Part shown: in pieces, positions 9,399 through 36,825 of the stretch
Numbering within the stretch: position 1 is the stretch's first letter
Layout of the letters: every line of letters begins with the position of its first letter
Virus record (IMG/VR): IMGVR_UViG_3300006201_000047
DNA from: a virus
Reading direction: 5' to 3' (one strand)
Length of the DNA: 42,302 nt
Notes under the pieces: model-generated
Seen by the model: the letters and a program-made list of their open reading frames with translations, nothing else
The model's database searches: none
Told to the model about the DNA's origin: nothing
Program-made: the position numbers and the translations under genes

Positions 9399-11945
9399 AT
9401 GAATAAGTGTTATTACCGAATTGTCTGGGAGAACTACCCAAGTGACAGAACGCCGCTAAATGAGCAAAATTTGAATAAAATCGACGTGGCAACGGATGAG
9501 ATGGACAACCGTATTATCTCTTTAGATTCCACAAAGTTTGATAAGTCAGAAGCGCAGATGCTTGTCAAGTACATAGAGTATGATGAGGAAACAGGAATTT
9601 TCAAAATCACACATTATAACGGAGCAAGTTACACCATTGATACGCTACTTGAAAAACTGGCCGTTAATTTCGATTATGACTACCAGACACAGCGTCTTAT
9701 TATCATGCTTTCAGATGGCGAGATAAAATATGTTGATTTGTCGGCCCTCATTACACAATATGAATTTTTGGACAGCGAAACCGTGCATTTTACCATAAGC
9801 GGAGATGGAAAGGTAAAGGCAGAGGTAAAAGAAGGGAGCATACAGGAAAGGCACCTGCGGCCGGAATACTTGGCGGATATACGGGTGGAGTCCGCCAAGG
9901 CGGAAGCCAGCGCAGTGGCGGCCGATACAAGCGAGAAAGCAGCAAAAGTGAGCGAAACTGCAGCCAAAGAATCTGAGATAAATGCTGCTAGCTCCGCTAC
10001 GGAATCAGCAAACAAAGCAACGGAGGCGGCAGTATCTGCAACTACAGCAACTCAAAAGTCAGAAGAGGCGGCAATATCAGCACAAGAAGCAGCGGACAGC
10101 GCGAAAGAATCAGCGGAATCAGAGGCGAGTTCCTTAGCTTCAGCAGAAACAGCTGGGCAACATGCTGCCGCCGCTTCCACTGAGGCGGAAAAAGCGGCTG
10201 GAAGCGCAATAGCTTCTACCGTAAAAGCAGAAGAATCAGCGGAATCTGCCAGATTATCCCAAAGTTATGCCATTGGAACTGGTGGAGAAGTTCGGGAGAA
10301 TGACGATACGGATTGCGCAGAATACTATTATGAACAGGCAAAAAGAGTAATCCAAGGTGTCAGTGGAATTGTTCCGATGGGAACGATAACCTTTGAGGGA
10401 CTCTCCGATACCGAACATCAGAAAACAGGATATATGTTTAATATATCAGATTCTTTTGTTTCCGATGAGCGCTTTTCTGATGGCGGAGGAATATTTTACG
10501 GCGCTGGAAACAATGTTCTTTACACAGCAGAGGGAAAGTGGGATGTTCTGGCTGGCGCAATGGTTTCTGGAGTAAAAGGAGCCGAAGAGACGGAATACAG
10601 ACAAGGATTCGTAAATATAACAGCCATGGATATCGGGGCAATTGCAAAGCACAAAAAAACTATCTTATTAAACGATGACATATATGACACAAATACTTAT
10701 TATCCTGTAACAGGTACGAGAATGCGTAACAACGAAATTAATCAAATGGAAGTTATGACAACGCTTGGAAGAAGCGGTACGCCACCATGGTCGACGCATG
10801 CAGAAGGTTTCTTCTTTCATTTAGCAATAGAAGAAGTAGGTAGCGGCTGGGGAGCAAATAACGGTAATAGATTGATTTTAGCAAACAATTCTATGTGGAC
10901 AGATAAAAATTGCGGTTGGTATAGACAATTAAACTCGATATCTATGCCTGTTTTCTTCTTGAGAGGCGGAGGAATTTATTATGTTACTACAGATTATGAA
11001 TGTGATTGGACAATTCATGCCTCCACATATGAACCAAATGAATACGAGAGCGTTTCTCCAACAACAACACTAGAAACGACGGATTGGGGAGCGAATCTCG
11101 GAACTGATATAAGGGGAAATTCCTCTTCGTCTGGAAGGGCAAGATATTTGCAATCAATACAAAACGACGGTACGCCATATGAAAATTTCTATTTATTACA
11201 GAGTAGATTTGTTGGAAACGATGATTTTAAATTAGAGATTTCAAATAACAGTAATGTTGACAGCACAAAATACAATGTTTGCGTTGATTATTCGCAAAAT
11301 GCAAATTCTGCGAACAGTGCTGGGAGTGCCACTACTGCCGGAAGCGCGGCTATTTCTTCCAAGCTAGGAAGAGACGGCAATATAAATAATCCAATGACGT
11401 TTCTTTGGCGTGGACAGAGCGGACAGCCTACATGGCTGTGGGGCAGTAATGATGGTAGTAATAATTATGTGTATAATCCATCCAATTTTAGCGTGAATTA
11501 TGCTGCAAGTGCGAACGTTGCTAATTCTGCAACCAGAGCCGTACAAGACCAGCATGGCAATAATATTTCCGACGCTTATTTGAGAAAATCAGATGCTGGT
11601 ATAGTTTATGCAACAAGCCAGAATAATATATCTTTATCAAGTGGTTCATGGAATAATAGTTTTTGTGGTTTAACGATACCTGCAGGAGTATATGTTGGAA
11701 CTTTTCAATTTCATTTCAATGCCTTTGGAAGTGGAAGCACAACCGGAAAAAGAATGGTTCGATTTGCAGGTACTCCTTTTGGAGGCATAAATAATGCTCC
11801 TGCAACCGGCTCTGCGCAGCATTTAACATCTTCTGCTGTATTTAGCCTTTCGTCAACAACCACGATTCATGGCGGTGCGTATCAAAATAGTGGATCAACA
11901 GCCACAGGATGCAGTTGTGTGATATATGTTGTAAAGATTAAATAA
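9399..11945 (+). CDS. Tail fibre / receptor-binding protein (848 aa)
   Basis: BppU-like N-terminus (RTPLNEQNLNKID), a long Ala/Ser/Glu-rich helical stalk (~9891-10269) and SANSA-type fibre motifs near the C-terminus. It is the last tail gene before the lysis cassette. Confidence 0.65.
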   Translation: MNKCYYRIVWENYPSDRTPLNEQNLNKIDVATDEMDNRIISLDSTKFDKSEAQMLVKYIEYDEETGIFKITHYNGASYTIDTLLEKLAVNFDYDYQTQRLIIMLSDGEIKYVDLSALITQYEFLDSETVHFTISGDGKVKAEVKEGSIQERHLRPEYLADIRVESAKAEASAVAADTSEKAAKVSETAAKESEINAASSATESANKATEAAVSATTATQKSEEAAISAQEAADSAKESAESEASSLASAETAGQHAAAASTEAEKAAGSAIASTVKAEESAESARLSQSYAIGTGGEVRENDDTDCAEYYYEQAKRVIQGVSGIVPMGTITFEGLSDTEHQKTGYMFNISDSFVSDERFSDGGGIFYGAGNNVLYTAEGKWDVLAGAMVSGVKGAEETEYRQGFVNITAMDIGAIAKHKKTILLNDDIYDTNTYYPVTGTRMRNNEINQMEVMTTLGRSGTPPWSTHAEGFFFHLAIEEVGSGWGANNGNRLILANNSMWTDKNCGWYRQLNSISMPVFFLRGGGIYYVTTDYECDWTIHASTYEPNEYESVSPTTTLETTDWGANLGTDIRGNSSSSGRARYLQSIQNDGTPYENFYLLQSRFVGNDDFKLEISNNSNVDSTKYNVCVDYSQNANSANSAGSATTAGSAAISSKLGRDGNINNPMTFLWRGQSGQPTWLWGSNDGSNNYVYNPSNFSVNYAASANVANSATRAVQDQHGNNISDAYLRKSDAGIVYATSQNNISLSSGSWNNSFCGLTIPAGVYVGTFQFHFNAFGSGSTTGKRMVRFAGTPFGGINNAPATGSAQHLTSSAVFSLSSTTTIHGGAYQNSGSTATGCSCVIYVVKIK

Positions 11946-11978
11946 TGGTACAACAAAATAATAAAAATAACTTAGAAT
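11945..11978 (+). promoter_or_regulatory. Copy of the phage-specific promoter motif (ATGGTACAAC-N17-tTAGAAT), upstream of the lysis cassette
   Basis: Matches the five other copies in sequence and exact spacing. It lies in the intergenic gap before the xhlA-like gene. Confidence 0.6.
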
Positions 11979-12006
11979 AATTACAAGAAAATACAGGAGA
12001 ATGATT

Positions 12007-12333
12007 ATGGATAACGATTTAACCAGACGGGAGCATGATGGTTTCCACAAAGAATTTGCAGAGCGGATGGACGCTGAAAATACGAGACAAAACAAGCGCC
12101 TGGACCTTCTTGAGAAAAACGCTAATCATATTACTGATTTAACTGTTTCAGTAGAAAAAATCGCAGTAAACATGAGTAATATGTTGGAAGAGTTAAGAAA
12201 TCAAGGGGAACGTCTGGAAGCCCTAGAAAACGAACCAGTAGAAACTTATAAACAAATACGAACAACAATCATAGCCTCGTTGATAGGAACTGTTGTAGGT
12301 TCTGTTGCAACGGCAATAACTATGTTTTTTTGA
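12007..12333 (+). CDS. xhlA: XhlA-like haemolysin/lysis accessory protein (108 aa)
   Basis: Coiled-coil N-terminus plus a single C-terminal TM helix (IIASLIGTVVGSVATAITMFF). It sits directly upstream of the holin and endolysin, as in PBSX-type cassettes. Confidence 0.7.
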   Translation: MDNDLTRREHDGFHKEFAERMDAENTRQNKRLDLLEKNANHITDLTVSVEKIAVNMSNMLEELRNQGERLEALENEPVETYKQIRTTIIASLIGTVVGSVATAITMFF

Positions 12334-12344
12334 AAGGAGAAAAT

Positions 12345-12563
12345 ATGAAGAAAAAGAACTTAAATGAATGGCTGAAAGCGGCTGGAATCCGTGCTGTTAA
12401 AACCATGGCGCAGACAGCGGCAGCCATGCTTCCTGCAGCGGCCACTATCAGTGCAGTGGACTGGACAACTGTACTAGGCACTGCGGCTCTGGCCGGAATA
12501 GCTTCCCTGCTGACATCAGCGGCAGGCCTGCCGGAACTGGACAAATCAGAAACCCTATGTTAA
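12345..12563 (+). CDS. Holin (72 aa, two TM segments; r1t/phiLC3-like pattern)
   Basis: AVKTMAQTAAAML...VDWTTVLGTAALAGIASLLTSAAGLPE. AAGGAG lies 6 nt upstream of the ATG, and the endolysin gene is adjacent. Confidence 0.8.
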   Translation: MKKKNLNEWLKAAGIRAVKTMAQTAAAMLPAAATISAVDWTTVLGTAALAGIASLLTSAAGLPELDKSETLC

Positions 12564-12634
12564 TCATCAACAGCAACATTCACAAACGTAACAATAACTG
12601 CATTCAATAAAAGAAAAAGAAAAGAGGAAAAACT

Positions 12635-13723
12635 ATGAATATTAACAAAGACTACATCTCAACGCAAAACACCTATACTGGAAAAAATTCTCCTAAATAT
12701 ATCGTCATCCACGAAACGGATAATTTTTCAGCAGGGGCGGATGCACAGCGTCACGCTTCTGCACAGGCGGCCGGACATTTAAGTACTTCTGTCCACTATT
12801 ACAGCGGCTCAGACGGCGTCTACCAGGCCGCCAGCCACACAGACGGAACTTTATCCGTGGGACGTGAATACGGAGGAAATCACGCTATTCATGACGCCGC
12901 AAACCGTAATACCATAAACATTGAAATCTGTGTAAATCCAGATGGAGACTACGCAAAGGCCCGCAGCAATGCCATTGAGCTGGTAAAGTACCTGATTCAA
13001 CAGACAGGCATTCCGGCAGAACGTGTTATCCGTCATTTTGACGCCAAAGGAAAATATTGCCCCAGAAACATGATGGACAATCCTGCTTTGTGGGAGGATT
13101 TCAAAAAACAGATTGGGCAGGCTCCTGCAGAACAGCAGGAAAGCACTAAGCCGGCCCAGCCATCTCAGGCACCAGAGGATAAGAAGGAAGTATGGTATCG
13201 TGTAGGTTCCGGCTGGAAAAACGGAATCTGCTTGAATCAGACCGGCGCTTACCACAATAAAGACTTTGCCATTGCAGACTGCAAGCCAGGCCAAAATGTC
13301 TATGATAAAAAAGGAACTGTCATTTATTCTCGAGAAAATACAGCAGGGAAAACCTCTGGAGAAAATACTCCAGCGGCCGACGGTACAGTTTACACTCAGA
13401 AACAATTCATCCTGGACGTGCAGAAAGCCACGGGCTCCAATCCAGATGGCATTGCCGGAGATGAGACGCTTGGAAATACTGTGACAGTTTCCAGAAGCAC
13501 ACATAAGTATCATGCGGTTGTGACGCCGCTGGAACGACGTATGAAGGCCCTGGGGTATTATCGGGGAGAAGTGGAAGCGGACCGGGGAGAGCCGCCTTGT
13601 TTTGGAAAAGGAATGGAATCTGCGGTAATTTCTTACCAGAAAAAAGTTTTGAAATATAAGAATACGGATGGGGAGATTACGGCCGGAAAGAAGATGTGGA
13701 AATCTCTGCTGGGAATGATTTGA
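12635..13723 (+). CDS. Endolysin: N-acetylmuramoyl-L-alanine amidase (Amidase_2/PGRP type) with C-terminal PG-binding repeats
   Basis: YIVIHETDN...INIEICV...VIRHFDAKGKYCPRNM is the zinc-amidase signature. The C-terminus carries NPDGIAGDETL and LGYYRGEVE motifs typical of PG_binding_1. Confidence 0.9.
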   Translation: MNINKDYISTQNTYTGKNSPKYIVIHETDNFSAGADAQRHASAQAAGHLSTSVHYYSGSDGVYQAASHTDGTLSVGREYGGNHAIHDAANRNTINIEICVNPDGDYAKARSNAIELVKYLIQQTGIPAERVIRHFDAKGKYCPRNMMDNPALWEDFKKQIGQAPAEQQESTKPAQPSQAPEDKKEVWYRVGSGWKNGICLNQTGAYHNKDFAIADCKPGQNVYDKKGTVIYSRENTAGKTSGENTPAADGTVYTQKQFILDVQKATGSNPDGIAGDETLGNTVTVSRSTHKYHAVVTPLERRMKALGYYRGEVEADRGEPPCFGKGMESAVISYQKKVLKYKNTDGEITAGKKMWKSLLGMI

Positions 13724-15450: not shown

Positions 15451-15468
15451 TTGTCATAAATTTGTCAC
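15451..15468 (+). repeat. Arm-type direct repeats TTGTCAT-N4-TTGTCAC (right of the core, overlapping the integrase 3' end)
   Basis: Second pair of the TTGTCAY motif (see 15241-15259). Confidence 0.5.
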
Positions 15469-16467
15469 AGGATTATCCAGGATTTCCCTGCGTAATTTCT
15501 CCGCCGCTTTCCTTTTCGCCTGCTCGTCTTTATCCATCATAGAATGTCGATATACAGTTTTCATAACGTGGTCCGTTTTCCACCCGCCCATTTTTATTAT
15601 ATCGGCTTCTGGAATATTCATGGAGCTCATTTTAGAAGCAAAGTAGTGCCGCATCTTATGTAAAGAGAATTTAGGCAGGCCCATGGAGCGCTGGGCCTTA
15701 TATAAAAAACATGTGATACTGTTTGGGTGCCCATCATATACATACCCTTGCTCTATTATCTTCTTTGCCACATCTTCTGGAATAATAACTTCTCTAGTGC
15801 TTTCAGGCGTCTTGGTAATTTTAATAATCCAGTTCTTATTTTCATCCTGAACCATGTTTTTATTTATTTTGATAATATCTCCTTTTATGTCATTCAAAGA
15901 CAATGCACATATCTCAGACCTTCTTAGACCATAGCAGCCAAGAATGATTGGAATTTCAAACATGGTCCCGCTGGAGTAATCCAATATCTTTCTTACATCA
16001 TCGTCAGTCGGTATATATGGCTCTTTTTTAATTTTTTGTGGGAGAGTAGTAGTAAGTTTCAGGTTGGGGCAAAAAATACCTAGAACAGACGATATGAAGC
16101 CATGGCGGTTTTTTACGGTCTTAGGGCTAAGGCTTTTCGACATCTCATTTATTTCCGTTTGCACATCGAGAGCTGTAATGTCATGCACATTTTTTTCAAG
16201 GAAATAGGTTGATAAATTTTTTATGATGGTTTTATATCCCCGGACCGTACTGGGAGATAAGATATTGCGCCTTGATTCTATGTATTCTTCAGCGGCAGCC
16301 TGGAAGGTCATGCTCTTATATTTCTTCTGCATTTTGTCCAGCTCTTCCGCCATGGCCTGTATGGCTTCTTTTTGCGTAGGTTTTTTATCAAAAATAACAG
16401 AGTAGGCCTTTCCTTTGTACATTTTTCGGACCCGGTAGGAGCCGGATGGCAATTTTTCGATTTTCAT
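15454..16467 (-). CDS. int: Tyrosine recombinase / phage integrase (337 aa)
   Basis: N-terminal SAM-like domain (KLPSGSYRVRKMYKGKAY). The catalytic region contains GLRRSEICAL, LHKMRHYFAS and GGWKTDHVMKTVYRH (R..HxxR..Y). RBS AAGGAGGA precedes the ATG at 16467. Confidence 0.9.
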   Translation of the reverse strand: MKIEKLPSGSYRVRKMYKGKAYSVIFDKKPTQKEAIQAMAEELDKMQKKYKSMTFQAAAEEYIESRRNILSPSTVRGYKTIIKNLSTYFLEKNVHDITALDVQTEINEMSKSLSPKTVKNRHGFISSVLGIFCPNLKLTTTLPQKIKKEPYIPTDDDVRKILDYSSGTMFEIPIILGCYGLRRSEICALSLNDIKGDIIKINKNMVQDENKNWIIKITKTPESTREVIIPEDVAKKIIEQGYVYDGHPNSITCFLYKAQRSMGLPKFSLHKMRHYFASKMSSMNIPEADIIKMGGWKTDHVMKTVYRHSMMDKDEQAKRKAAEKLRREILDNPVTNL

Positions 16468-16548
16468 GATTATCCTCCTTAAAAATGAGTATAAAAAATA
16501 CAGCCTGTGAACCATACGCTATTTTCGTACATTTCACTTGCAAGCTGC

Positions 16549-17212: not shown

Positions 17213-17231
17213 GGAAACCTAGTCCTTTTTT
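17206..17231. terminator. Hairpin with GAAA tetraloop plus T6, shared by the convergent 32-aa ORF and the repressor gene
   Basis: GGGCTAGG-GAAA-CCTAGTCC followed by TTTTTT. Confidence 0.65.
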
Positions 17232-17590
17232 ATAAGTTCATTTGCCAGTTTTTCCAGTGCAATCCATCCCGGTTCATCCATCTTTGCCAGAGCTTCAATC
17301 AAGCGTTTTCTAAATGTCCCATCCTCTTTTATTAAATCCCCGGCAAAATCAGTGATTATTTGATTTCTGGTTAAAGGATTAAATATTTCCCCCTCCCCTG
17401 TACGGAGCCAGGTTTCATTTACATTAAATTCCCGGCAGATAGACATTAAAACAGAATTAGAAGGATTTCTATTTCCATTTTCATAATTGGCAATTGTATT
17501 TCTTGCTGAGCCAATTCTTTTTCCAAATTCCTCTTGGGTAAGATTTAAGGAATCTCTTATTTCTTTTATCCGTGTCAAATTTTTAATCAC
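17219..17590 (-). CDS. cI-like repressor, XRE-family HTH (123 aa, GTG start)
   Basis: LTQEEFGKRIGSARNTIANYENGNRNPS is the classic HTH_3 motif. It is divergent from the early operon. Confidence 0.85.
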   Translation of the reverse strand: MIKNLTRIKEIRDSLNLTQEEFGKRIGSARNTIANYENGNRNPSNSVLMSICREFNVNETWLRTGEGEIFNPLTRNQIITDFAGDLIKEDGTFRKRLIEALAKMDEPGWIALEKLANELIKKD

Positions 17591-17633: not shown

Positions 17634-17679
17634 CAAAAAAGTTGTTGACAAAATTCTCAAAGAGAACTATAATGTTCTC
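17620..17679. promoter_or_regulatory. Operator set built from GTTCTC/GAGAAC half-sites
   Basis: GTTCTCAAAGTCAAC at 17620-17634. ATTCTCAAAGAGAAC at 17653-17667 is palindromic. GAGAAC-TATAAT-GTTCTC at 17662-17679 brackets the rightward -10. Confidence 0.6.
17645..17673 (+). promoter_or_regulatory. Rightward early promoter, perfect TTGACA-17-TATAAT
   Basis: TTGACA at 17645-17650 and TATAAT at 17668-17673, with an exact 17-nt spacer. Confidence 0.75.
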
Positions 17680-17705: not shown

Positions 17706-17870
17706 ATGACAGATAAAGAAATGGAAATTTTATTGACAATCTCAAAAGCCCTGCCCCTTATGTCCCCATTTGAAAAGGGCTATTTTCTTGGAGTTGCAGA
17801 GAGTAAGGCAAGCGAAGCTGGGAAGTTACATATTGAAGAAGATAAGGAACCAGACAAGGTTCTGGTGTGA
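17706..17870 (+). CDS. First early gene (cro position), 54 aa, no obvious HTH
   Basis: Hand translation: MTDKEMEILLTISKALPLMSPFEKGYFLGVAESKASEAGKLHIEEDKEPDKVLV. RBS AAAGGAGG is present. Confidence 0.55.
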   Translation: MTDKEMEILLTISKALPLMSPFEKGYFLGVAESKASEAGKLHIEEDKEPDKVLV

Positions 17871-17883
17871 GGAGGTGTAAAAA

Positions 17884-18303
17884 ATGAAATATGAAATATG
17901 TAAAAAAACTGGTGAAGTATGGACCAGAATCGCTATGGCCGACACTTGGAACTGGGCTTATGAAATATGTGAAAGTCTTAAAATTCATACAGATAGAGAG
18001 TTTTCTGTATTTATAAGCGGAGTTAAAGTTGAGGGCATAGAAGAGTTGATGGAGAAGAAGGAGAAAAAGAAAGATAAACCGATGAAACGGTATTTCTGTT
18101 GGAGGTCTTGTTTGGTATGGAAATGCATGGGGCCGGAGGCAGAGACATTAAGAGACGTGATAAAAGCAAGAACTAAGAAAGAAGCGAAAGAAAAATTTAG
18201 AAAACAAAATCATAATTCGCCCGCTCAAGTCTGCGTGGAAATCACGGAATCAGAAGAAGAGCTCCCATATGCTGACGCTTTGAAAAAATACGACAGATAT
18301 TAA
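17884..18303 (+). CDS. Hypothetical early protein (139 aa)
   Basis: RBS GAGGAGG is present. It has a Lys-rich central linker and no motif I recognise. Confidence 0.65.
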   Translation: MKYEICKKTGEVWTRIAMADTWNWAYEICESLKIHTDREFSVFISGVKVEGIEELMEKKEKKKDKPMKRYFCWRSCLVWKCMGPEAETLRDVIKARTKKEAKEKFRKQNHNSPAQVCVEITESEEELPYADALKKYDRY

Positions 18304-18314
18304 AGGAGGGAACC

Positions 18315-18551
18315 ATGTACATACCGGAGTTTTTATGCGGAGTTATCGCAACCATCATAGCGGAGGTTCTTTTGGCCGCTGCATGCACAGCGTACGACGA
18401 ATGGAAAAAGAAAGATGAGAAAAAGGAGCAAGTTCTACATCCGGACGTTTCAATGTCCAGATTGCGGCGGGAGCCTGTTCGCTCCCAAGGTGAAGAGGCC
18501 CACCGGAAACGGACATATAAAAACCCTGTATTGCACGTGGTGCAAGGCTGA
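18315..18551 (+). CDS. Hypothetical protein with an N-terminal TM helix (78 aa); its 3' part overlaps a zinc-ribbon ORF
   Basis: Strong RBS AAGGAGGG. FLCGVIATIIAEVLLAAACTAY is TM-like. The sequence after the KKKDEKKE stretch looks non-protein-like. Confidence 0.45.
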   Translation: MYIPEFLCGVIATIIAEVLLAAACTAYDEWKKKDEKKEQVLHPDVSMSRLRREPVRSQGEEAHRKRTYKNPVLHVVQG

Positions 18552-18591
18552 CAAGGACATGGAGCAGGTGGGGATGGAGAAGTGCAAGTAA
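18415..18591 (+). CDS. Zinc-ribbon protein (58 aa) in the +1 frame relative to 18315-18551
   Basis: Hand translation: MRKRSKFYIRTFQCPDCGGSLFAPKVKRPTGNGHIKTLYCTWCKADKDMEQVGMEKCK. It contains a CxxC...CxxC motif. Confidence 0.5.
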   Translation: MRKRSKFYIRTFQCPDCGGSLFAPKVKRPTGNGHIKTLYCTWCKADKDMEQVGMEKCK

Positions 18592-18593
18592 AA

Positions 18594-18622
18594 GCCCCGG
18601 CGGTGTAAGGGCACCCCGGGGC
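18594..18622 (+). other. GC-rich 11-bp stem-loop (one bulge) without a T-tract
   Basis: GCCCCGG-c-GGTG / CACC-CCGGGGC with loop TAAGGG. Confidence 0.6.
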
Positions 18623-29615: not shown

Positions 29616-30884
29616 ATGTTGCCGCCGGAATACTTCGACCACAAAGAGGATAGATTGCTTGAACTCTACCGACAACTCGAAAACTTTATCCTCAAAGACA
29701 TCACCCGACGCCTACTCTCCGCTGGGGAAATGACCGCAACCGCCGACCGCCTTATCTGGAAATTGCAGCAGATGGGCGAGAGCCAGGCGGCGATTGAGCA
29801 GAAATTGCAGAAGTTGACGGGTCTGACACGAAAAGAACTTCGCTTCCTCCTGCAAGATGCCGTTCTGACTTCGTGGGAGGACGATAGAGCAACTTTAGGA
29901 CAGTTAGGCATAGAATTATCGAACCCACTTGAAAATGCCGCTGTAATCCGTATTATGGACGCTGAATATAAAAAGAGCTTAAGTGAATTAACGAACCTCA
30001 CACGAACGACCATGAATCAGTCGCAGATTGACCTTATAAATATGCTTGATGAAGCTGATTTGAAGGTTTCTTCTGGTGCACAAAGCTATTCAGAGGCGGT
30101 ATGTGATATTCTGGATAGGTATGCTGTCCGAGGGATATATGTGGATTATCCGAGTGGTGCACGCCGGACACTGGAAGCGGCGGTTAGATTGTGCGTTGTC
30201 ACATCAATGAACCAGACAGCAGCACAGGTCACGAATCAGTACATAGTTGAGGGCGGAATTGAGTATGTCCTTGTATCGGCGCATCTGGGGGCGAGAGTGG
30301 CGCAGAAAGGACAGCCAGCTCTTGCTTCTCATGCAGACTGGCAAGGCAAGGTGTATAAAATCCGAGGGACCACATCAGAATACCCGAATTTACTGGAACG
30401 GACAGGCTATGATGTGGACCCGAACACCGGGCAAGGGACCGTTAAAAATCCGCTTGGATTACACGGATACAACTGCCGGCACTCACACAAGCCTTGGGAT
30501 AAGCTCCTACGCAATCCCTATGTGGACGAAAAAGGCAATCTGAAAATAGACAGCGAGGAAAACAAAAAGCGGTATGAACTCCAACAGAAACAGCGTGCAA
30601 TGGAGCGGAGTCTGCGGGCATGGAAACGAAAGCTGATTGTGAAAGAGCAGGAAATATCCGGCGTGGCAGAAACGGACGTTAAGGAGATATTGCAGAGGGA
30701 TTATGACCGCATGGCGTACCAGCTCACACAGAAAAACAAGGCGTACAACGATTTCTGCAAACAGAACGACTTGCAGCCGCAGTATGACCGCATAAAGGTA
30801 GCTGATTTCGGCAGGGAGCAGACAAAGCGGAGTAATGCTGGGGCAAGGAGATATAAGAAAGAAAAGGAGAAGGAAGAATCATGA
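29616..30884 (+). CDS. Head morphogenesis / minor capsid protein (SPP1 gp7, Phage_Mu_F / minor-capsid-2 type, 422 aa)
   Basis: The MLPPEYFDHKEDRLLELYRQLENFILKDITRRL N-terminus and the GYNCRHSHKPW motif are typical of this family. It sits in the portal-proximal position. Confidence 0.75.
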   Translation: MLPPEYFDHKEDRLLELYRQLENFILKDITRRLLSAGEMTATADRLIWKLQQMGESQAAIEQKLQKLTGLTRKELRFLLQDAVLTSWEDDRATLGQLGIELSNPLENAAVIRIMDAEYKKSLSELTNLTRTTMNQSQIDLINMLDEADLKVSSGAQSYSEAVCDILDRYAVRGIYVDYPSGARRTLEAAVRLCVVTSMNQTAAQVTNQYIVEGGIEYVLVSAHLGARVAQKGQPALASHADWQGKVYKIRGTTSEYPNLLERTGYDVDPNTGQGTVKNPLGLHGYNCRHSHKPWDKLLRNPYVDEKGNLKIDSEENKKRYELQQKQRAMERSLRAWKRKLIVKEQEISGVAETDVKEILQRDYDRMAYQLTQKNKAYNDFCKQNDLQPQYDRIKVADFGREQTKRSNAGARRYKKEKEKEES

Positions 30885-31039: not shown

Positions 31040-31073
31040 TTGGTACAACCCCCGCACGAATCTGTTGTAAAAT
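31040..31073 (+). promoter_or_regulatory. Copy of the phage-specific promoter motif (TTGGTACAAC-N17-gTAAAAT), head of the cargo island
   Basis: Matches the other copies. It is followed by the leader ATTGTGGTAGGAGGTAGGGA. Confidence 0.6.
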
Positions 31074-31093: not shown

Positions 31094-31411
31094 ATGAGTA
31101 TAATAAGCGAACAGGTAAGAGAACTGCGTTATAAAGCTGATATTTACAACGCTGTCGGGAGCGCATGGGAATTAAACCGTGCGGAGGCAAAGATATTACA
31201 GAGATTGCTTAGAAAAGCCGCTGACACCATAGAGGCATTATCCAAAAAGTTGGCGACAAACGGCGGCTGGATTCCATGCAGTGAGCCGCCAAAGCATGAC
31301 AAAGAAGTTTTGATATTCAACGGGAAATCATACTCTGTGGGATATTATGATGGGAAAACATGGGTAAATGCAATACACCCCGTGGAATGGCAGGAGATAC
31401 AGCATGAATAA
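31094..31411 (+). CDS. Coiled-coil plus DUF551-like protein (105 aa)
   Basis: The C-terminus reads NGGWIPCSEPPKHDKEVLIFNGK...DGKTW. Confidence 0.5.
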   Translation: MSIISEQVRELRYKADIYNAVGSAWELNRAEAKILQRLLRKAADTIEALSKKLATNGGWIPCSEPPKHDKEVLIFNGKSYSVGYYDGKTWVNAIHPVEWQEIQHE

Positions 31412-31775
31412 TAGATGGGTAGAATATAACAGCAATCCTTTAAAAAGACGTGTCGGCGACTGCGCCATTCGTGCGTGCTGCAAGGCTACAAACCGCACAT
31501 GGAATGAAGTCTTTGACGACCTTGTGCAGATTGCGTACCGTCAAAAGGATGTTTTGTCAGCAAATAAAGTATGGGGTGAATACCTGGCAGATAACGGCTA
31601 TGTTCGCTATGAGCCGGATTACCCTATGGACGTTTACAAATTTTGCTGCAACTTTCCGCATGGTACATACGTTCTTGGGCTTGACGGTCATGTAGTGACG
31701 GTGGTGGACGGGCGGTTCTATGATACTTGGGATTCGTCCGGGAAGAGTGTGATTTATTTTTGGGAGAGGGGATAG
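31404..31775 (+). CDS. Putative papain-like Cys/His enzyme (123 aa)
   Basis: NPLKRRVGDCAIRACCKA (a GDC nucleophile-like motif) and later LDGHVVTVVDGRFYDTWDS (a GH motif). This is inferred from a motif pattern seen in phage proteins. Confidence 0.4.
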   Translation: MNNRWVEYNSNPLKRRVGDCAIRACCKATNRTWNEVFDDLVQIAYRQKDVLSANKVWGEYLADNGYVRYEPDYPMDVYKFCCNFPHGTYVLGLDGHVVTVVDGRFYDTWDSSGKSVIYFWERG

Positions 31776-31778
31776 GCA

Positions 31779-32102
31779 TTGACAAGGAAAGAAGCTATAG
31801 GAGAATTTCAAGTACAGATAAGCACTCTTGAAAGCATGATTGCGTATAATAATGACTTTGAACCCAAAAGTGATAATTCAAGGCTGATAGAGAGAATGGA
31901 AGCGGCGAAAGTGGCTATATCTGCATTGGAAGAATTGGAACGCTGGCACACCGACCGTATCAATGAGAAAATCAAGAATCCGTTTGCATGGACTTCTACC
32001 TCTATTTGCCACAACTGCGACCATAAAGACGAATACATAGAGGAATTGGAAACAGAGATTCAAGAGTTGAAACAGAAATATGAGATTGCAACCACTCCCT
32101 AA
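31779..32102 (+). CDS. Hypothetical coiled-coil protein (107 aa, TTG start)
   Basis: An ORF with a CHNCDH motif and a C-terminal coiled coil. Confidence 0.5.
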   Translation: MTRKEAIGEFQVQISTLESMIAYNNDFEPKSDNSRLIERMEAAKVAISALEELERWHTDRINEKIKNPFAWTSTSICHNCDHKDEYIEELETEIQELKQKYEIATTP

Positions 32103-32142
32103 AATTGCTATAATGAGGGAAATACAGAGCGGAGGTTTGGGA

Positions 32143-32292
32143 ATGGAAATGCCAGTAATAATAGGCTCATTGGTGATACTTGGTGAAATATCAATTTTGG
32201 CTTTTATGCTGATGAAAGAGTGGTTTCTTCCGTTTGTCGGTCAATGTGTTTGTGATTTTTGTGGAAAGGTTAAGGGAAGATATGGAAAATAG
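32143..32292 (+). CDS. Small membrane protein (49 aa)
   Basis: MEMPVIIGSLVILGEISILAFMLM is TM-like, followed by a CVCDFC motif. Confidence 0.45.
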   Translation: MEMPVIIGSLVILGEISILAFMLMKEWFLPFVGQCVCDFCGKVKGRYGK

Positions 32293-32548
32293 GGATAATG
32301 TGAAGGAAAAAGAAAACGGCGCAACCGATGTATTGGGCGCACTGGTTAAGCAGCTTAAAACAATGTGGATAGTGATTGTTCTTTTAATTATTCTGCTTGT
32401 CGGAACAAATATGGCTTGGTTGTATGTGTTCCAGTCCTATGACTATGTATCACAGGACGGCGAGGGATATAATTATTACAACAAAGAGATTGAAGGTGAT
32501 GTGCATAATGGGACAGAAGATAAGAAGCAAGAAGAAGGGCAGAACTAG
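32282..32548 (+). CDS. Single-pass membrane protein (88 aa)
   Basis: TM helix MWIVIVLLIILLVGTNMAWLYVF followed by an acidic, Tyr-rich tail. Confidence 0.5.
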   Translation: MENRDNVKEKENGATDVLGALVKQLKTMWIVIVLLIILLVGTNMAWLYVFQSYDYVSQDGEGYNYYNKEIEGDVHNGTEDKKQEEGQN

Positions 32549-32580
32549 GGGAACTAAGAAGAAAAGAAAGTAGCGGTGGC

Positions 32581-32853
32581 ATGAGGAAGAAAAAAGAAAA
32601 GGAAGTTGAAGGATTTGTCAAATGGGAGTTGGAACTTTTTAAAAATGAGTGCAATTTCACGCCGGACGAATCCATGTTCTTTGATTTGAGGAATGAGGGC
32701 GATGGAATGAGTTTTGAAGAAATCGCCGGTCAAATGGGATATTGCATGACTAAAATCAATAAACTTTCTGAATCCGTCACCAAAAAGATTATAAAGGTAT
32801 TGCCGCTTAAAGAGGCATTTTTCAAGAAATACCGCGATAAATACGGAGAATAA
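32581..32853 (+). CDS. Sigma-70 region-4-like HTH protein (90 aa)
   Basis: MSFEEIAGQMGYCMTKINKLSESVTKKIIKVL matches the LSyeEIAe.lg.s..tVk.rl.ra.kkl pattern. Confidence 0.55.
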   Translation: MRKKKEKEVEGFVKWELELFKNECNFTPDESMFFDLRNEGDGMSFEEIAGQMGYCMTKINKLSESVTKKIIKVLPLKEAFFKKYRDKYGE

Positions 32854-32954
32854 TTGAATAAAAAACGCAACAAAAACGAGGGTTTTCCGAGTATGGGAAA
32901 CTCTCTATTTTTATGCAAAAATTTACCCATAGAAAGAAATCGGAGGGCATTCAG

Positions 32955-33476
32955 ATGGCATATTCAAATCAATACCAACCATATCAGTACCAATATGCGC
33001 CACAGGTGCAGCCGCCTATGGACAGGCTGGCGCAGTTGCAGGCGCAGCAGTATCAGCCTATGCAGCAACCAGCACAATCAAATCAATCATTGATTTATGT
33101 GCAAGGAGAGGCGGCGGCTAAAAGCTGGATTGTAGGAGCCGGGCAGTCCGTATTGCTGATGGACAGTGAGAATCCAGTGTTTTATATCAAATCTGCAGAT
33201 GCTTCTGGGATTCCGTTGCCGCTTCGGGTATTTGATTATACAGAACGCAATCAGAGTATGCCGCAGAACGCACCACAATCCGTAAATCCGGCTCAAATAG
33301 ATTTAGATAGACAATATGTCACAAGAGCGGAATATGACGACTTGCAGGGAAAATATGCGGAGATTTTGGACAGACTGAATAACTTTCCTGTCAATATTTC
33401 AACTGGCGATGATACCAAGAGAACAACGGCAGGAACAAGCAAGCCAAGAAATAAGGGAGGGAATGCTAATGAGTAG
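32955..33476 (+). CDS. Gln/Pro/Tyr-rich N-terminus plus conserved-looking core protein (173 aa)
   Basis: MAYSNQYQPYQYQYAPQVQPP...QQYQPMQQPAQSNQ, followed by VQGEAAAKSWIVGAGQSVLLMDSENPVFYIKSADASGIP. Confidence 0.6.
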   Translation: MAYSNQYQPYQYQYAPQVQPPMDRLAQLQAQQYQPMQQPAQSNQSLIYVQGEAAAKSWIVGAGQSVLLMDSENPVFYIKSADASGIPLPLRVFDYTERNQSMPQNAPQSVNPAQIDLDRQYVTRAEYDDLQGKYAEILDRLNNFPVNISTGDDTKRTTAGTSKPRNKGGNANE

Positions 33477-33681
33477 TCCGGTTTTCGGAGCAATGGGCGG
33501 TCGGGGCGGCGGAAATATGATGCAGCAGTTCCAACGCTTTATGCAGGAAATGAAAGGGAAGAACCCACAGGAGGAAATAAATAAGCTGCTCCAATCTGGA
33601 AAAGTAAGTCAGCAGCAACTTAATCAAGTACAACAGCAAGCCCAGCAGATGCAGGGGATGTTTAAAGGATTTTTTAAGTAG
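33469..33681 (+). CDS. Gln/Met-rich small protein (70 aa)
   Basis: MSSPVFGAMGGRGGGNMMQQFQRFMQEMKGKNPQEE...QQQLNQVQQQAQQMQGMF. RBS AAGGGAGGG is present. Confidence 0.55.
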   Translation: MSSPVFGAMGGRGGGNMMQQFQRFMQEMKGKNPQEEINKLLQSGKVSQQQLNQVQQQAQQMQGMFKGFFK

Positions 33682-33730
33682 ATACATAACTTTGCGCAAA
33701 GTTTGTAAATAAATTTCAAGGAGTAAAAAC

Positions 33731-34528
33731 ATGATGGAATCAGGAGTACCAATTACGATGAACGTAGAGCCTAGTGGCTGTAATAACAATAACGGCGGCT
33801 TCGGCGGAGATTGGGGCGCATGGATTATCCTTTTCCTTATCTTTGGTATGTTCGGCTGGGGCGGTTTCGGCGGCTTTGGTGGAGGATTCGGCGGAAATTC
33901 CGCAGGATTACAGGGAGCTTTAACCCGCGCGGATATCAATGAAGGATTTGCCCTTAATAACTTGCAGAGCGGTATCAATGCCATTCAGCAGGGCATCTGT
34001 GACAGCACCTATGCACTCACAAACGCCGTAAACAGCGGCTTCAACAGCACGCAGATGGGAATGATGCAGGGATTTAACGGTGTTGAGCGTGGATTTTGCA
34101 ACCTGTCCAGTCAGATTTCCGATTGTTGCTGCCAGACGCAGCGCGCGATTGACGGCGTGAACTACAACATGGCGAAGAACACATGTGATTTACAAAATAC
34201 CATGAATGTAAACACACGCGACATTATCGACAGCCAGAACGCAGGCACAAGGGCAATCCTCGACTATCTGTGCCAGGAGAAGATTTCTGACTTACAGGCA
34301 GAGAACCAGACGCTGAAACTGGCAGCATCCCAGGCGAACCAGAACGCAACACTTATGGCAGCCATGGACGCTAACACGGCGCAGATTATCCGCAGAACCG
34401 GCAACGACTGCCCTATTCCGGCATATGTCGTACAGCCCCCGGCGCAGGTATCTTTCCCGACAAATTGTTGCGGACAGTTCAACGGCGGCGGTTGGGGCGG
34501 TAACTGCAATCAGTGTGGCAACTGCTAA
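33731..34528 (+). CDS. Gly/Cys/Asn-rich membrane-anchored protein (265 aa), YjcZ-like N-terminal segment
   Basis: GGFGGDWGAWIILFLIFGMFGWGGFGGFGGGFGG near the N-terminus, a CCC triplet, and the C-terminus NCCGQFNGGGWGGNCNQCGNC. Confidence 0.65.
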   Translation: MMESGVPITMNVEPSGCNNNNGGFGGDWGAWIILFLIFGMFGWGGFGGFGGGFGGNSAGLQGALTRADINEGFALNNLQSGINAIQQGICDSTYALTNAVNSGFNSTQMGMMQGFNGVERGFCNLSSQISDCCCQTQRAIDGVNYNMAKNTCDLQNTMNVNTRDIIDSQNAGTRAILDYLCQEKISDLQAENQTLKLAASQANQNATLMAAMDANTAQIIRRTGNDCPIPAYVVQPPAQVSFPTNCCGQFNGGGWGGNCNQCGNC

Positions 34529-34599: not shown

Positions 34600-34626
34600 A
34601 GGGCAGAACATTGATTCTGTCCTTTT
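34600..34626 (+). terminator. Hairpin plus T4 after the Gly/Cys-rich gene
   Basis: AGGGCAG / CTGTCCT (one G-U pair) with a 10-nt loop, followed by TTTT. Confidence 0.45.
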
Positions 34627-34645
34627 GCGATTAACTGGACATTGA

Positions 34646-34666: not shown

Positions 34667-34700
34667 ATGGTACAAATCACACCTTGAAATATGAGATAAT
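34667..34700 (+). promoter_or_regulatory. Copy of the phage-specific promoter motif (ATGGTACAAA-N17-aGATAAT)
   Basis: Matches the other copies in spacing. It is the most divergent copy. Confidence 0.5.
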
Positions 34701-34734: not shown

Positions 34735-35331
34735 ATGAGAGTTTTAGTTGCTTGTGAGGAAAGTCAAGCTGTAACAATAGAATTGCGGAGATTGGGGCAT
34801 GAAGCGTATTCGTGCGACATTGAGGAATGTTCCGGCGGACACCCGGAATGGCATTTACAGCAGGACGTGACACAGCTTTTGAAAATGAAATGGGATATGA
34901 TTATAGCATTCCCACCATGTACATATCTTTCCAATGCAGGAGCGAAGCATTTATGGAAAGACCATGTTTTGAATGAAGAACGGTACATGAAAGGACTTGA
35001 AGCAAAGAAATTCTTTATGCAGTTTCTCAATGCGGATTGTCCGAGGATTGCGGTAGAAAATCCCGTATCAAGCCGGATATTCGGTATGCCGCCGCACACG
35101 CAGGAAATACAGCCTTACCAATTTGGACACCCGGTACAGAAAAAGACACGCTTATGGCTGCGTGGATTGCCGAAGTTGATACCGACAAATGAGGTTGATT
35201 ATAAATGCAACTGTCACGAAGCAGGAACATGGTTTATGAAAGGCGGCAAAGATAGGCAGAAAAACAGAGCAAAGACATTTCCGGGAGTTGCTAAGGCAAT
35301 GGCGGAACAATGGGGAGGAAAAACAGAATAA
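34735..35331 (+). CDS. C5-cytosine-methyltransferase-like protein lacking a canonical motif I (198 aa)
   Basis: IAFPPCTYLS looks like motif IV (PC) and IAVENPVSS like motif VI (ENV). The N-terminus MRVLVACEESQ replaces FxGxG. The protein is far shorter than a complete Dcm-type enzyme. Confidence 0.55.
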   Translation: MRVLVACEESQAVTIELRRLGHEAYSCDIEECSGGHPEWHLQQDVTQLLKMKWDMIIAFPPCTYLSNAGAKHLWKDHVLNEERYMKGLEAKKFFMQFLNADCPRIAVENPVSSRIFGMPPHTQEIQPYQFGHPVQKKTRLWLRGLPKLIPTNEVDYKCNCHEAGTWFMKGGKDRQKNRAKTFPGVAKAMAEQWGGKTE

Positions 35332-35342
35332 GACCATTAAAA

Positions 35343-35361
35343 CTATCAGCTATATCAGTTG
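35343..35361. repeat. Right inverted repeat flanking the methyltransferase-like cassette (overlaps an AT-rich terminator-like hairpin plus T-run)
   Basis: CTATCAGCTATATCAGTTG is the reverse complement of 34646-34665 minus one A. Confidence 0.85.
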
Positions 35362-35388
35362 GTAGTTTTTTATTTGGAGGAAAATAAC

Positions 35389-35811
35389 ATGGCAGAATAT
35401 ACTGGAATTGCCTTGCAGACCGTAGAAGCAGGGCAGAATGTTGTATTAACCGAAACCCCCGTGTGCGGTTCAAACTGCATACAGCACAGGGAGGGGAGCG
35501 GCATTGTAAAATTGAGAGGACTTACCAATAACTGCAAGGCAAGATTTCTTGTCAGCTTTTCGGGAAATATCCAGATTCCGACAGGCGGCACGGTTGAAGC
35601 TATCTCCGTAGCGATTGCGGTTGACGGAGAGCCTTTGCAGTCCACCAGAATGATTGTAACCCCGTCGGCGGTTGAGAACTTCTTTAATGTGTCCGCACAG
35701 GCTTACATAGACGTGCCGAGAGGGTGCTGTGCAACCGTGGCGGTCGAAAACACGTCCACACAGGCGATTCAGGTGCAGAACGCTAACCTGATTGCAGTAA
35801 GGGAGGGTTGA
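35389..35811 (+). CDS. BclA-C-terminal-domain-like (C1q/TNF-type jelly-roll) protein (140 aa)
   Basis: The pattern ...GQNVVLTE...GSGIVKL...ARFLVSFSGNIQIP.GGTVEAISVAIAVDGEPL...NANLIAV resembles BclA/BclB CTD proteins, from memory. RBS GGAGGA is present. Confidence 0.45.
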   Translation: MAEYTGIALQTVEAGQNVVLTETPVCGSNCIQHREGSGIVKLRGLTNNCKARFLVSFSGNIQIPTGGTVEAISVAIAVDGEPLQSTRMIVTPSAVENFFNVSAQAYIDVPRGCCATVAVENTSTQAIQVQNANLIAVREG

Positions 35812-35813
35812 TC

Positions 35814-36353
35814 ATGCATAAATTAAGAGAAAACGCAGAAAAAGAGTTAAAAGCGATTGAGGAAAAAGGCTTATCCCAGTCCAACATTGACAATGCCTAT
35901 AAGCTTGTGGAGATTGTGAAGGGCGTGGACAAAATCAACATGATGGAAGAGGGCGGCGGTTATTCCAGAGATGGGTACAGTCGTGATATGGAGGATTACA
36001 GCCGGGATAGTGGTTATGGTGGTGGTAACAGCCGTGACCGTGGGTATTCCCGTGATAACTACGACAACGGCAATTCATACCGCAGAGGACGCAACCAGCG
36101 CACCGGGGAATATATGCACCGTCCGAACCATTCCCGCCTTTCTGGAGATGATACCGACATGGACGAGTATCGTAGCCGGAAAATGGAATACTCCAACAGC
36201 CGGGATGATGGTGCGAAGAACAGAATGCTTGACGCTTTGGAAGATTTTATGTCTGGCGTGCATGGCATGATGAAACAGATGTTCAAGGATGCGGACTGTC
36301 GGGAAGAAAGGGAGATTATCCAGAACTGGGCAAGGAAAATTGCAGAGATGTAA
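35814..36353 (+). CDS. Protein with a central (Y/N)SRD-repeat low-complexity region (179 aa)
   Basis: GGGYSRDGYSRDMEDYSRDSGYGGGNSRDRGYSRDNYDNGNSYRRGRN is flanked by helical N- and C-terminal domains. Confidence 0.6.
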   Translation: MHKLRENAEKELKAIEEKGLSQSNIDNAYKLVEIVKGVDKINMMEEGGGYSRDGYSRDMEDYSRDSGYGGGNSRDRGYSRDNYDNGNSYRRGRNQRTGEYMHRPNHSRLSGDDTDMDEYRSRKMEYSNSRDDGAKNRMLDALEDFMSGVHGMMKQMFKDADCREEREIIQNWARKIAEM

Positions 36354-36363
36354 TATTGCAGAG

Positions 36364-36390
36364 GGGCGGCAGTGATGCCGCTCTTTTGCT
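36364..36390 (+). terminator. Intrinsic terminator
   Basis: GGGGCGGCA-GTGA-TGCCGCTC forms an 8-bp stem with one G-U pair, followed by TTTTGCTTT. Confidence 0.7.
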
Positions 36391-36395
36391 TTAAG

Positions 36396-36429
36396 TTGGT
36401 ACAAATAATTTATTCATTCGTGGTATGAT
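36396..36429 (+). promoter_or_regulatory. Copy of the phage-specific promoter motif (TTGGTACAAA-N17-gTATGAT)
   Basis: Matches the other copies. It lies immediately after a terminator. Confidence 0.55.
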
Positions 36430-36478
36430 AATTTCAGTAGGGGAGTTTTCCCCTGTCGGAAACCGCAAAAGGGAGGAT

Positions 36479-36790
36479 ATGGGAATGGTAAAGTTACAGT
36501 CAAAAGATGAACCGATAACAGTTTTTTATTTTAGAAATATGCAGGATTGCGAAGCATTTATGCATGTGTTTAAAGACCACTGGTGCAATGTTGAATGGAA
36601 TGAAGTGATAGAAAGACCAGATTTTCCGGAAATGAGCAGGTATCAGAGAGAGGCTTTGAACAAAGACCCGAAAGAGCGCGCAGAAAGCAATTTGTCATGG
36701 GGATTCAACCTTGATAGGAAGTTTAACAGGGGATTAAACGACAACCAAAACGCTTTTGTTTCTGCTATGATTTGGAGGATGACCGTTTAA
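36479..36790 (+). CDS. Hypothetical protein (103 aa; alternative ATG at 36485)
   Basis: RBS GGGAGG is present. No motif recognised. Confidence 0.6.
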   Translation: MGMVKLQSKDEPITVFYFRNMQDCEAFMHVFKDHWCNVEWNEVIERPDFPEMSRYQREALNKDPKERAESNLSWGFNLDRKFNRGLNDNQNAFVSAMIWRMTV

Positions 36791-36791
36791 T

Positions 36792-36825
36792 TTGGTACAA
36801 CTACCCCACCAAACTGCGGTACAAT
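36792..36825 (+). promoter_or_regulatory. Copy of the phage-specific promoter motif (TTGGTACAAC-N17-gTACAAT)
   Basis: Matches the copy at 24265 in the 10-mer and the -10. Confidence 0.6.

Follow-up and report, generated by a model that had tools for sequence, protein, structure and literature searches.

Six promoter-like sites in a temperate siphophage genome

The stretch of DNA considered here, IMG/VR record IMGVR_UViG_3300006201_000047 (42,302 bp in its entirety, hereafter the window), is the complete, circularly permuted genome of a temperate siphophage, whose relatives have mouse-gut Lachnospiraceae as their hosts. It carries six copies of a ten-nucleotide box, WTGGTACAAM, each followed by a hexamer resembling a -10 element, and an earlier note on this DNA had proposed that they mark promoters of late and cargo genes served by a dedicated phage factor. 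Exact matching confirmed all six copies, at positions 11945, 24265, 31040, 34667, 36396 and 36792 and all on the + strand. The gene most relevant to their interpretation is located at 23605-24054 (+ strand); among the conserved genes of the early operon it comes last, and it encodes a protein of 149 amino acids, referred to below as A1.

The first site (11945-11978; box 11945-11954, hexamer TAGAAT at 11973-11978) stands ahead of the lysis unit (12001-13723), which comprises an unknown gene (12001-12333), a holin gene (12330-12563) and a gene for an amidase endolysin (12635-13723); in the relative L224 (loci of relatives are numbered in this way throughout) a box precedes a homologue of the first of these genes. 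The second site (24265-24298; box 24265-24274, hexamer TACAAT at 24293-24298) heads the packaging and head unit, which begins at 24321 and includes the genes for the terminase (25439-27064), the portal (27064-28512) and a minor capsid protein (29616-30884). The third (31040-31073; box 31040-31049, hexamer TAAAAT at 31068-31073) precedes an accessory cassette (31094-34528). The fourth (34667-34700; box 34667-34676, hexamer GATAAT at 34695-34700) lies downstream of a terminator-like hairpin with a T-run at about 34600-34628 and heads the unit 34735-36353, which encodes a DNA-methyltransferase-like protein (PHROG 757) and members of two unknown PHROG families. The fifth (36396-36429; box 36396-36405, hexamer TATGAT at 36424-36429) directly follows a strong terminator (36358-36389) and precedes a small gene ending at 36790; homologous promoter classes are found in L152, L167, L168, L181 and L221. 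The sixth (36792-36825; box 36792-36801, hexamer TACAAT at 36820-36825) is followed by the unit 36949-38099.

The motif is real and highly non-random. Dinucleotide-preserving shuffles of the window contained 0.43 copies of WTGGTACAAM on average and three at most, against the six observed, so the enrichment over a shuffled background that the earlier note had proposed as a check is indeed found. The core 8-mer TGGTACAA does not occur in the window beyond these six copies, on either strand, and ranks first among the intergenic 8-mers, six different gaps containing it. The confinement of the copies to intergenic gaps holds for all six, and with an intergenic share of 8.7% of the genome the probability of such a placement by chance is about 4e-7. 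A position weight matrix built from the six sites revealed no seventh copy in the window (the next best score was 13, versus at least 30 for the six), and a degenerate copy sought ahead of the scaffold/capsid block was likewise not found. In all six cases exactly 18 nt lie between the 10-mer and the -10-like hexamer, hexamers of this type starting at only 2.7% of the window positions. The fixed spacing claimed before is thus exact, but the hexamer of the 34667 site, GATAAT, departs from the literal pattern nTAnnAT. Each copy is preceded, at a distance of 0-2 nt, by a TAA or TAG triplet, with which the upstream gene terminates in four cases, and a ribosome-binding site (RBS) and start codon are found downstream of every copy.

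With the hexamer placed at -12 to -7, the 10-mer occupies -40 to -31 and overlaps the usual place of a -35 element. The bases at -35 to -30 read ACAAC or ACAAA followed by any base, unlike TTGACA, and the alternative match TTGGTA would sit 22 nt from the hexamer. The six hexamers match TATAAT at four or five of the six positions, with A2 and T6 present in all of them. A scan for the sigma-70 consensus did not list any of the six sites, the sole overlap being a 9/12 match at 24259 that combines a TTTAAA -35 with a hexamer within the spacer; the reading of the sequence and the scan therefore agree with the earlier view that the box is no TTGACA -35. The canonical TTGACA-17-TATAAT promoters reported for the early and lysogeny genes are equally evident, with matches of 12/12 at 13732 and 17645, 11/12 at 17039 and 10/12 at 15224 (minus strand). 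Since the early promoters follow this standard consensus perfectly, it is presumably the one that the host sigma-A reads. Extended -10 promoters are able to function without a -35 element, and the window sites differ in this respect: the TGn preceding the hexamer is TGa at 34667 and TGg at 36396, TG is displaced by one base to -14/-13 at 24265 and 31040, and it is absent at 11945 and 36792.

Several other promoter types and one RNA-level reading were considered and rejected. A sigma-54 promoter (TGGCAC-N5-TTGCW, with GG at -24 and GC at -12, 10 nt apart) is incompatible with all six sites, none of which has TTGC at the required distance after TGGTAC. Sporulation, extracytoplasmic function (ECF) and sigma-I consensus promoters were likewise set aside; C-rich spacers occur in just three of the six sites. 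A nut-like box combined with a hairpin, acting in the transcript, would require a hairpin that is found at the packaging site only.

The sixth site deserves a closer look. In L166 a promoter of the 36792 class lies about 130-340 nt ahead of the tRNA-like region and the scaffold gene, and in L152, L156, L168 and L204 this class is followed by small genes, then by a 147-nt non-coding element and then by the scaffold gene. The radical-SAM-like gene of the window (37326-38099) is absent from the last four loci, which have a segment of about 200-270 nt instead. This synteny identifies 36792 as the promoter for the head (scaffold/capsid), accessory genes having been inserted downstream of it. Three of the four cargo units named in the earlier note hence stand as accessory cassettes, but the fourth would be the head unit. 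The product of 37326-38099 partially matches 'rSAM mobile pair protein A' and PHROG 2045. Two of the accessory proteins, encoded at 33731-34528 and 35808-36353, are of unusual composition, one being Gly-/Cys-rich and the other acidic with 'YSRD' repeats, and give strong matches to PHROGs 16490 and 28802, both of unknown function.

A box was also said to stand at every late unit. This applies to the units for lysis and packaging and to several accessory ones, but no copy lies directly ahead of the scaffold-capsid-tail block, and between the 36792 unit and this block there is a terminator-like hairpin on the + strand (38123-38160; 17 pairs and a T-run). The statement is true only if the transcript from 36792 passes this hairpin. 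The hairpin is contained in the aforementioned 147-nt element (38122-38268), which is 89-95% identical in relatives and thus more conserved than the flanking coding DNA, and just past the hairpin, at 38167, there is a sigma-A-like promoter with an extended -10 (TTGACA / TGaTAGATT).

Further along lies a tRNA-like gene (38367-38447; 81 nt), reported by ARAGORN as 'tRNA-???' because of an aberrant anticodon loop with no assignable anticodon and scoring 37 bits with the Rfam tRNA model; a T-arm-like sequence, GGTTCGATTCCGC, is found about 130 nt upstream of it (38190-38265). Relatives have kept this region just ahead of the scaffold gene. It is followed by a GP20-b RNA motif (RF03003) at 38451-38515, with 41.6 bits versus a gathering threshold of 36.2, which adjoins the scaffold-like gene upstream.

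The remaining genes complete the map. The scaffold-like gene (from 38532) is assigned by its position and the upstream GP20-b motif, the capsid-like gene (from 39162) by position and sequence, and the connector genes (40152-42302) by position; the latter run on into the tail genes (1-11945), which are identified by position and size and by tape-measure and tail homologues in relatives. The minus strand carries the integrase gene (15454-16515) and the gene for a cI-like repressor (17219-17590), and the early operon (17706-24263) encodes, among others, a PDDEXK-like protein, RusA and a replication initiator. The terminase gene is a single open reading frame (ORF) of 541 codons, in which a Terminase_2 small-subunit domain (residues 4-127) is joined with the ATPase and nuclease domains of the large subunit; the relatives L233 and L235 show this fusion too.

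Conservation of the box and its linkage to the A1 gene

The motif is conserved well beyond the window, with the consensus tAAn-WTGGTACAAM-N8-AAtCT-n-TGn-TAnnAT. A scan of IMG/VR with the tripartite pattern TGGTACAA-N10-AATCT-N4-TAnnAT retrieved 92 stretches representing 54 distinct sequences, many with unrelated spacers, as compared with a handful expected by chance according to a rough estimate; the bare pattern TTGGTACAAC-N17-NTANNAT yielded mostly isolated chance matches, and it is the AATCT-containing pattern that is informative. The same architecture is present in Lachnospiraceae prophages, so the conservation in related phages, whose examination had been recommended in the earlier note, is well documented. 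A query of the literature with the 8-mer returned primer noise only, and nothing relevant was found on late promoters of Lachnospiraceae or Clostridia. In GenBank, a megablast search with half of the genome gave a single 311-bp match and no close relative among phages.

To evaluate base conservation, the sites were condensed to 41 mutually dissimilar promoter classes. Across these classes, bases left unspecified are kept, namely tAA at -44 to -42, W at -40, M at -31 and AAtCT at -21 to -17, and the extended -10 is apparent as T at -15 in 27 and G at -14 in 25 of the 41. Among 60 unique TGGTACAA boxes, taken only from loci fetched through protein homology, the hexamer lies exactly 18 nt from the box in 52 and at 17 or 19 nt in none. 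At 88 of 103 sites in relatives, an ORF with an RBS and start codon is found within 300 nt, at a median distance of 32 nt. The relatives' boxes precede packaging genes, homologues of 31094/31368, scaffold/capsid genes (L151, L163, L166, L168, L197), tail genes (L177, L203) and many accessory genes; the class ahead of the 31094/31368 homologues, i.e. that of 31040, is found in many relatives and is the commonest in IMG/VR.

The exact spacing and the fixed orientation point to a direct part of the box in the complex of RNA polymerase and promoter rather than a role as a repressor operator. The latter possibility was nevertheless weighed: the sites might be self-sufficient extended -10 promoters recognized by sigma-A, with the box serving a repressor that silences the late genes. 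TGn does precede the hexamer in most promoter classes, and promoters of this kind can dispense with a -35. An operator, however, needs neither a spacing of exactly 18 nt nor a constant orientation, both of which are kept in 52 of the 60 boxes; the cI-like repressor, encoded in only seven of 16 loci with both A1 and the box, cannot be the common binder; and two of the window promoters lack TG while two others have it shifted. We thus consider the operator scenario very unlikely.

The packaging site has an additional feature, an inverted repeat of 16-17 bp (24275-24320; tccccctaaaatctcct / aggggatttaggggga) that holds the -10 hexamer in its loop. It is kept in about 30 relatives, with a fold energy of about -20 to -29 kcal/mol (computed with RNA parameters). 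Its pairs are mostly invariant and include one compensatory pair only. The repeat could keep early read-through out of the late operon, or it could be a protein-binding dyad. It is lost in L052, L126 and L189, where a packaging-type promoter sequence is followed by unrelated DNA, the homology ending a few bases past the -10.

Such breaks suggest that the shared promoter sequence acts as a recombination junction for the exchange of cassettes, and one may ask whether the box is mainly a module-junction sequence with no transcriptional role at all. Its copies in the window do all lie at module boundaries, at most two nucleotides past a TAA or TAG triplet, and in the three relatives just mentioned the homology breaks right after the promoter. 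A mere junction, however, would leave the hexamer at a fixed distance, the single orientation and the RBS and start codon that follow unexplained, and the shuffling of modules is better seen as a consequence of the shared promoter sequence. We find the junction alternative scarcely credible and retain the view that the box contributes directly to promoter recognition.

The element represented by L224-L226 (Lachnospiraceae-type contigs from ENA/NCBI) is peculiar in its organization. It has four box promoters, one of them on the opposite strand, some located before Band_7 and Bro-N genes, and its structural module ends after the minor capsid gene, to be followed by a Tn916-type Xis/integrase pair and then by the host groES/groEL genes. 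Truncation of a prophage, or its interruption by another element, may account for this organization.

The box is linked to the A1 gene family. In 20 loci fetched via A1 homologues, TTGGTACAAC-tccccctaaaatctcct-GTACAAT recurs downstream of the A1 gene, and a second site, orthologous to that at 31040, lies 8-10 kb further downstream. Among the 20 close loci, 17 have a box promoter at a distance of 0-1.5 kb past the A1 homologue, and such a box is also found in nearly all IMG/VR loci with enough downstream sequence; the orthologue of the packaging site is kept 150-1500 bp downstream of the A1 gene in relatives. When loci were instead selected by the motif, 16 of those with a packaging-type spacer and sufficient upstream sequence carried A1 at most 1.6 kb upstream; those that did not are L149, which has packaging genes downstream and is represented by a 7.6-kb contig, and L052, which has a different cassette downstream. 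The apparent exceptions L145 and L189 have A1 on the same contig, and in L170 the gene is found on a sister contig from the same genome, at its end. The remaining early proteins encoded in the window are rare among loci with A1 and the box; of 16 such loci, three have the helix-turn-helix protein, four the replication initiator, six RusA and seven the cI-like repressor. The 70-codon gene between A1 and the box (24051-24263) was rejected as a possible co-factor, as no related locus has a homologue (0 of 16) and in many relatives A1 and the box are too close together to accommodate such a gene.

The linkage persists in seven divergent lineages, in which the box either follows the A1 stop codon within about 200 nt or overlaps with the gene at its 3' end: L250 (53% identity to A1; box ATGGTACAAC at +69), L224 (51%; TGGTACAAT at +204), L233 (44%; ATGGTACAAA at +117), L255 (41%; ATGGTACAAA at +14), L227 (40%; ACGGTACAAC, overlapping the 3' end, with CGGTACAA, hence CGG, at both sites), L235 (39%; ATTGTACAAA and TTGTACAA, overlapping the 3' end) and L257 (31%; TGGGTACAAA and GGGTACAA, at +24). 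GTACAA plus hexamer at most 200 nt from the end of a gene is a coincidence expected in well below 1% of cases. The two bases flanking GTACAA are altered only in the most divergent A1 lineages, to CGG, TTG or GGG.

Candidate readers of the box

The A1 gene has the RusA and replication-initiator genes upstream and the terminase unit downstream. Its product has a pI (isoelectric point) of 9.2, contains 11 cysteines, several of which form a conserved N-terminal cluster (CxxCxCxxC...C), and in an AlphaFold2 model has a C-terminal domain predicted with confidence as five helices (residues 55-149; predicted local distance difference test score, pLDDT, above 90). The family is sizeable, with 548 close members and 123 clusters at 50% identity, yet isolated: no relative was found in Pfam, NCBIfam or among PDB sequences, 85 members lack Ltr-type Pfam families at E<=1, and tblastn against 50,697 GenBank phage records gave no match. 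Foldseek searches with the model returned nothing at E<1 from PDB and only three uncharacterised metagenomic phage proteins from BFVD.

The label 'RinA/ArpU-like' given to this protein in the earlier note is contradicted by these results. In NCBIfam it has no match to RinA (TIGR01636), ArpU (TIGR01637) or sigma-factor models even at E<=1, whereas RinA of phage 80alpha, used as a positive control with the same library, scores 5e-61 with the RinA, 7e-7 with the ArpU and 4e-6 with the sigma70-ECF model; a profile-profile comparison (hhalign) of A1 and RinA gave a probability of 0.1%. The choice of this gene as the best candidate for the regulator has fared better, being favoured by the position of the gene and its conserved linkage to the box.

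The same data bear on the idea that a host alternative sigma factor or activator of Lachnospiraceae reads the box, the linkage to A1 being merely positional. Rigid spacing between box and hexamer is commonly seen where a single sigma factor reads the promoters, the box is nearly invariant among phages whose A1 proteins differ by up to 60%, and A1 has no recognisable DNA-binding fold. On the other hand, the -10 is of the ordinary sigma-A type with an extended TG, and the box is not known to match any Firmicute sigma-factor consensus. Moreover, the box directly follows the A1 gene in seven divergent lineages with different neighbours, and the flanks of GTACAA vary only where A1 is most divergent. 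A host factor as the reader therefore appears rather improbable to us, and a phage-encoded factor, as the earlier note had envisaged, offers the most economical explanation of a promoter class lacking a -35.

The second candidate named in that note is a protein of 90 amino acids (gp90; 32581-32853, + strand) encoded within the 31040 unit, which had been likened to sigma region 4. Its predicted fold agrees with this guess: an alignment-based AlphaFold2 model (pLDDT 84) retrieved sigma region 4 structures as the top Foldseek hits in PDB (1ku7_A, 4g6d_A, 2h27, 1or7 and 3hug), with probabilities of 0.87-1.0, those of the best hits, which include 1ku7, 2h27, 1or7 and 4g6d, being 0.97-1.0, and target TM (template modelling) scores of 0.32-0.76, albeit with E values of only 0.1-0.7. 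No match was obtained to the Pfam families Sigma70_r4 and r4_2 or to NCBIfam sigma models, 75 homologues have no precomputed Pfam domain, and hhalign indicated no relationship of gp90 to RinA or to A1. The family occurs in 31 loci, always in the head-accessory cassette. Upstream of its gene and inside the 31040 unit lies a strong sigma-A-like promoter (32086-32114; TTGCAA-17-TATAAT with TG), which could permit expression of gp90 independent of the box.

It is thus conceivable that gp90 reads the box, be it alone, in positive feedback or as the DNA-binding partner of A1, in which case A1 would be a cofactor or unrelated. The predicted fold matches sigma region 4 bound to -35 DNA, and the box sits at the -35 position; the known activators of the Ltr superfamily are themselves sigma-4-like, RinA matching the region-4 part of the sigma70-ECF model and LtrA being described as Sigma70_r4 (PMC3753634). 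The gp90 gene is moreover kept in the same cassette in all 31 loci, including the distant L227, and the promoter at 32086 would be able to supply the protein without help from the box. The gene, however, is found not where early and late genes meet but 8 kb deep in the late region, as part of a box-driven unit, and the structural matches have weak E values and are not backed by any match to a hidden Markov model of a sigma family. In addition, homologues are missing from two box-bearing relatives, namely from the contiguous 24-kb packaging-to-tail stretch of the IMG/VR contig 3300006198_000003 (at E<=1), which has A1 and four TGGTACAA promoters, and from the four-promoter element L224-L226. 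We regard recognition of the box by gp90 as unlikely. Its gene being located within a box-driven unit and absent from some box-bearing phages, gp90 makes a poor primary activator and is ranked as a possible modulator or partner instead.

A putative late regulon and its relation to known systems

The interpretation we favour, with a probability of roughly 0.6, is that the six sites are late promoters of a temperate Lachnospiraceae siphophage at which a factor of the A1 type replaces recognition of the -35. To judge from gene order, the early operon, including A1, would be transcribed from the promoter at 17645-17673 (TTGACA-17-TATAAT, + strand), which faces the cI-like repressor gene and would be controlled by the repressor. 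As the product of the last conserved gene of this operon, A1 would accumulate, and the late genes would not fire until early transcription is complete. A1 would then bind the box, which is near-palindromic but asymmetrically conserved, at -40 to -31 and substitute for sigma region 4 and its contact with the -35, either as a class-II or PhoB/MotA-style activator or as a surrogate of sigma region 4, while the extended -10 would be read by the host sigma-A holoenzyme. Together they may fire six units, of which three are accessory cassettes and the others the packaging/portal unit, the block from head to tail and the lysis cassette. The transcript from 36792, if it continues past the hairpin at 38123-38160, would reach the tRNA-like gene and the scaffold, capsid, connector and tail genes, wrapping around to 1-11945. 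It is also a reasonable inference that the accessory cassettes between the minor capsid and scaffold genes are late genes rather than genes of lysogenic conversion.

Certain observations weigh against this interpretation. The largest late block, from scaffold to tail, is cut off from the nearest box by a conserved terminator-like hairpin. No recognisable DNA-binding domain was found in A1 in Pfam, NCBIfam, PDB sequences, Foldseek searches against PDB or annotated BFVD entries, and the phage encodes a second protein, gp90, whose predicted fold resembles sigma region 4 and which could be the reader of the box or a required partner. The linkage is not without exceptions either: the packaging-type site of L149 has no A1 within 3.3 kb upstream, although on a short contig, and no box follows the distant A1 homologues of L229, L230, L253 and L254, the former two (about 100 amino acids long) lacking any obvious alternative motif as well. 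Finally, the loci in which the linkage was observed had partly been selected through A1 itself.

Late-gene control is essentially uncharacterised in the phages that infect Lachnospiraceae, a family that is dominant in the gut and hard to handle genetically, and a short, rigid and highly specific promoter with a single candidate activator would enable direct annotation of late regulons in gut viromes. Accessory genes expressed late could be separated from true lysogenic-conversion genes, and the activator and its promoter might serve as an orthogonal pair in genetic tools for Lachnospiraceae. A more far-reaching proposal is that A1 founds a new family of late activators, combining a Cys cluster with a novel five-helix domain and acting at a single GTACAA box at the -35 of extended -10 promoters. 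Its multi-promoter late regulon would include captured 'moron-like' cassettes, the flank specificity (TGG, CGG, TTG or GGG) would co-evolve with the protein, and gp90 would perhaps be a second-tier modulator. We see this proposal as evenly balanced between right and wrong. If true, the known late activators of Gram-positive phages would gain a sixth family with no structural kinship to the rest, and such activators would prove capable of driving many dispersed promoters instead of a single terS promoter.

Some features of the putative regulon have parallels in more remote systems. Middle promoters of phage T4 combine a MotA box with a sigma-70 -10 and depend on AsiA ('sigma appropriation'), and activation of the PhoB type likewise replaces the -35. 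Common to these cases and the sites described here are a good -10, a factor-specific box at a fixed distance in place of the -35 and many scattered promoters. The MotA box, however, is centred near -30 and has another sequence, as opposed to a box occupying -40 to -31; moreover, no homologue of MotA or AsiA was found here, and the phage is a temperate one with a Firmicute host. The late activators Ogr of P2 and Delta of P4, zinc-finger proteins of phages of Proteobacteria, are reminiscent of A1 in that a small, Cys-containing and presumably metal-binding phage protein is proposed to serve several late promoters lacking a -35, but their sites are dyads centred near -55 and the proteins show no sequence relationship to A1.

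Among known systems the Ltr superfamily comes closest by analogy; it comprises the late regulators RinA, ArpU, LtrA/Sigma70_r4, LtrB/DUF1492 and LtrC of temperate phages from Gram-positive hosts and acts on terS promoters (PMC3152322, PMC3753634). There, too, the gene for a small basic protein ends a repressor-controlled early operon just upstream of the packaging genes (PMC3753634), the cognate DNA element lies directly distal to the regulator gene, morphogenesis and lysis are controlled, and there is no usable -35. A1 differs from these regulators in having an N-terminal Cys cluster and no similarity in sequence, profile or fold to RinA, ArpU or sigma region 4. The sites differ as well, since those of the Ltr regulators consist of two to four direct repeats of 7 nt located upstream (PMC3753634), in contrast to the single near-palindromic 10-bp box that overlaps the -35 position in the window. 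Last, the Ltr regulators act on one terS promoter for the whole late operon (PMC3753634), whereas A1 would serve six dispersed promoters, some of them standing before accessory cassettes.

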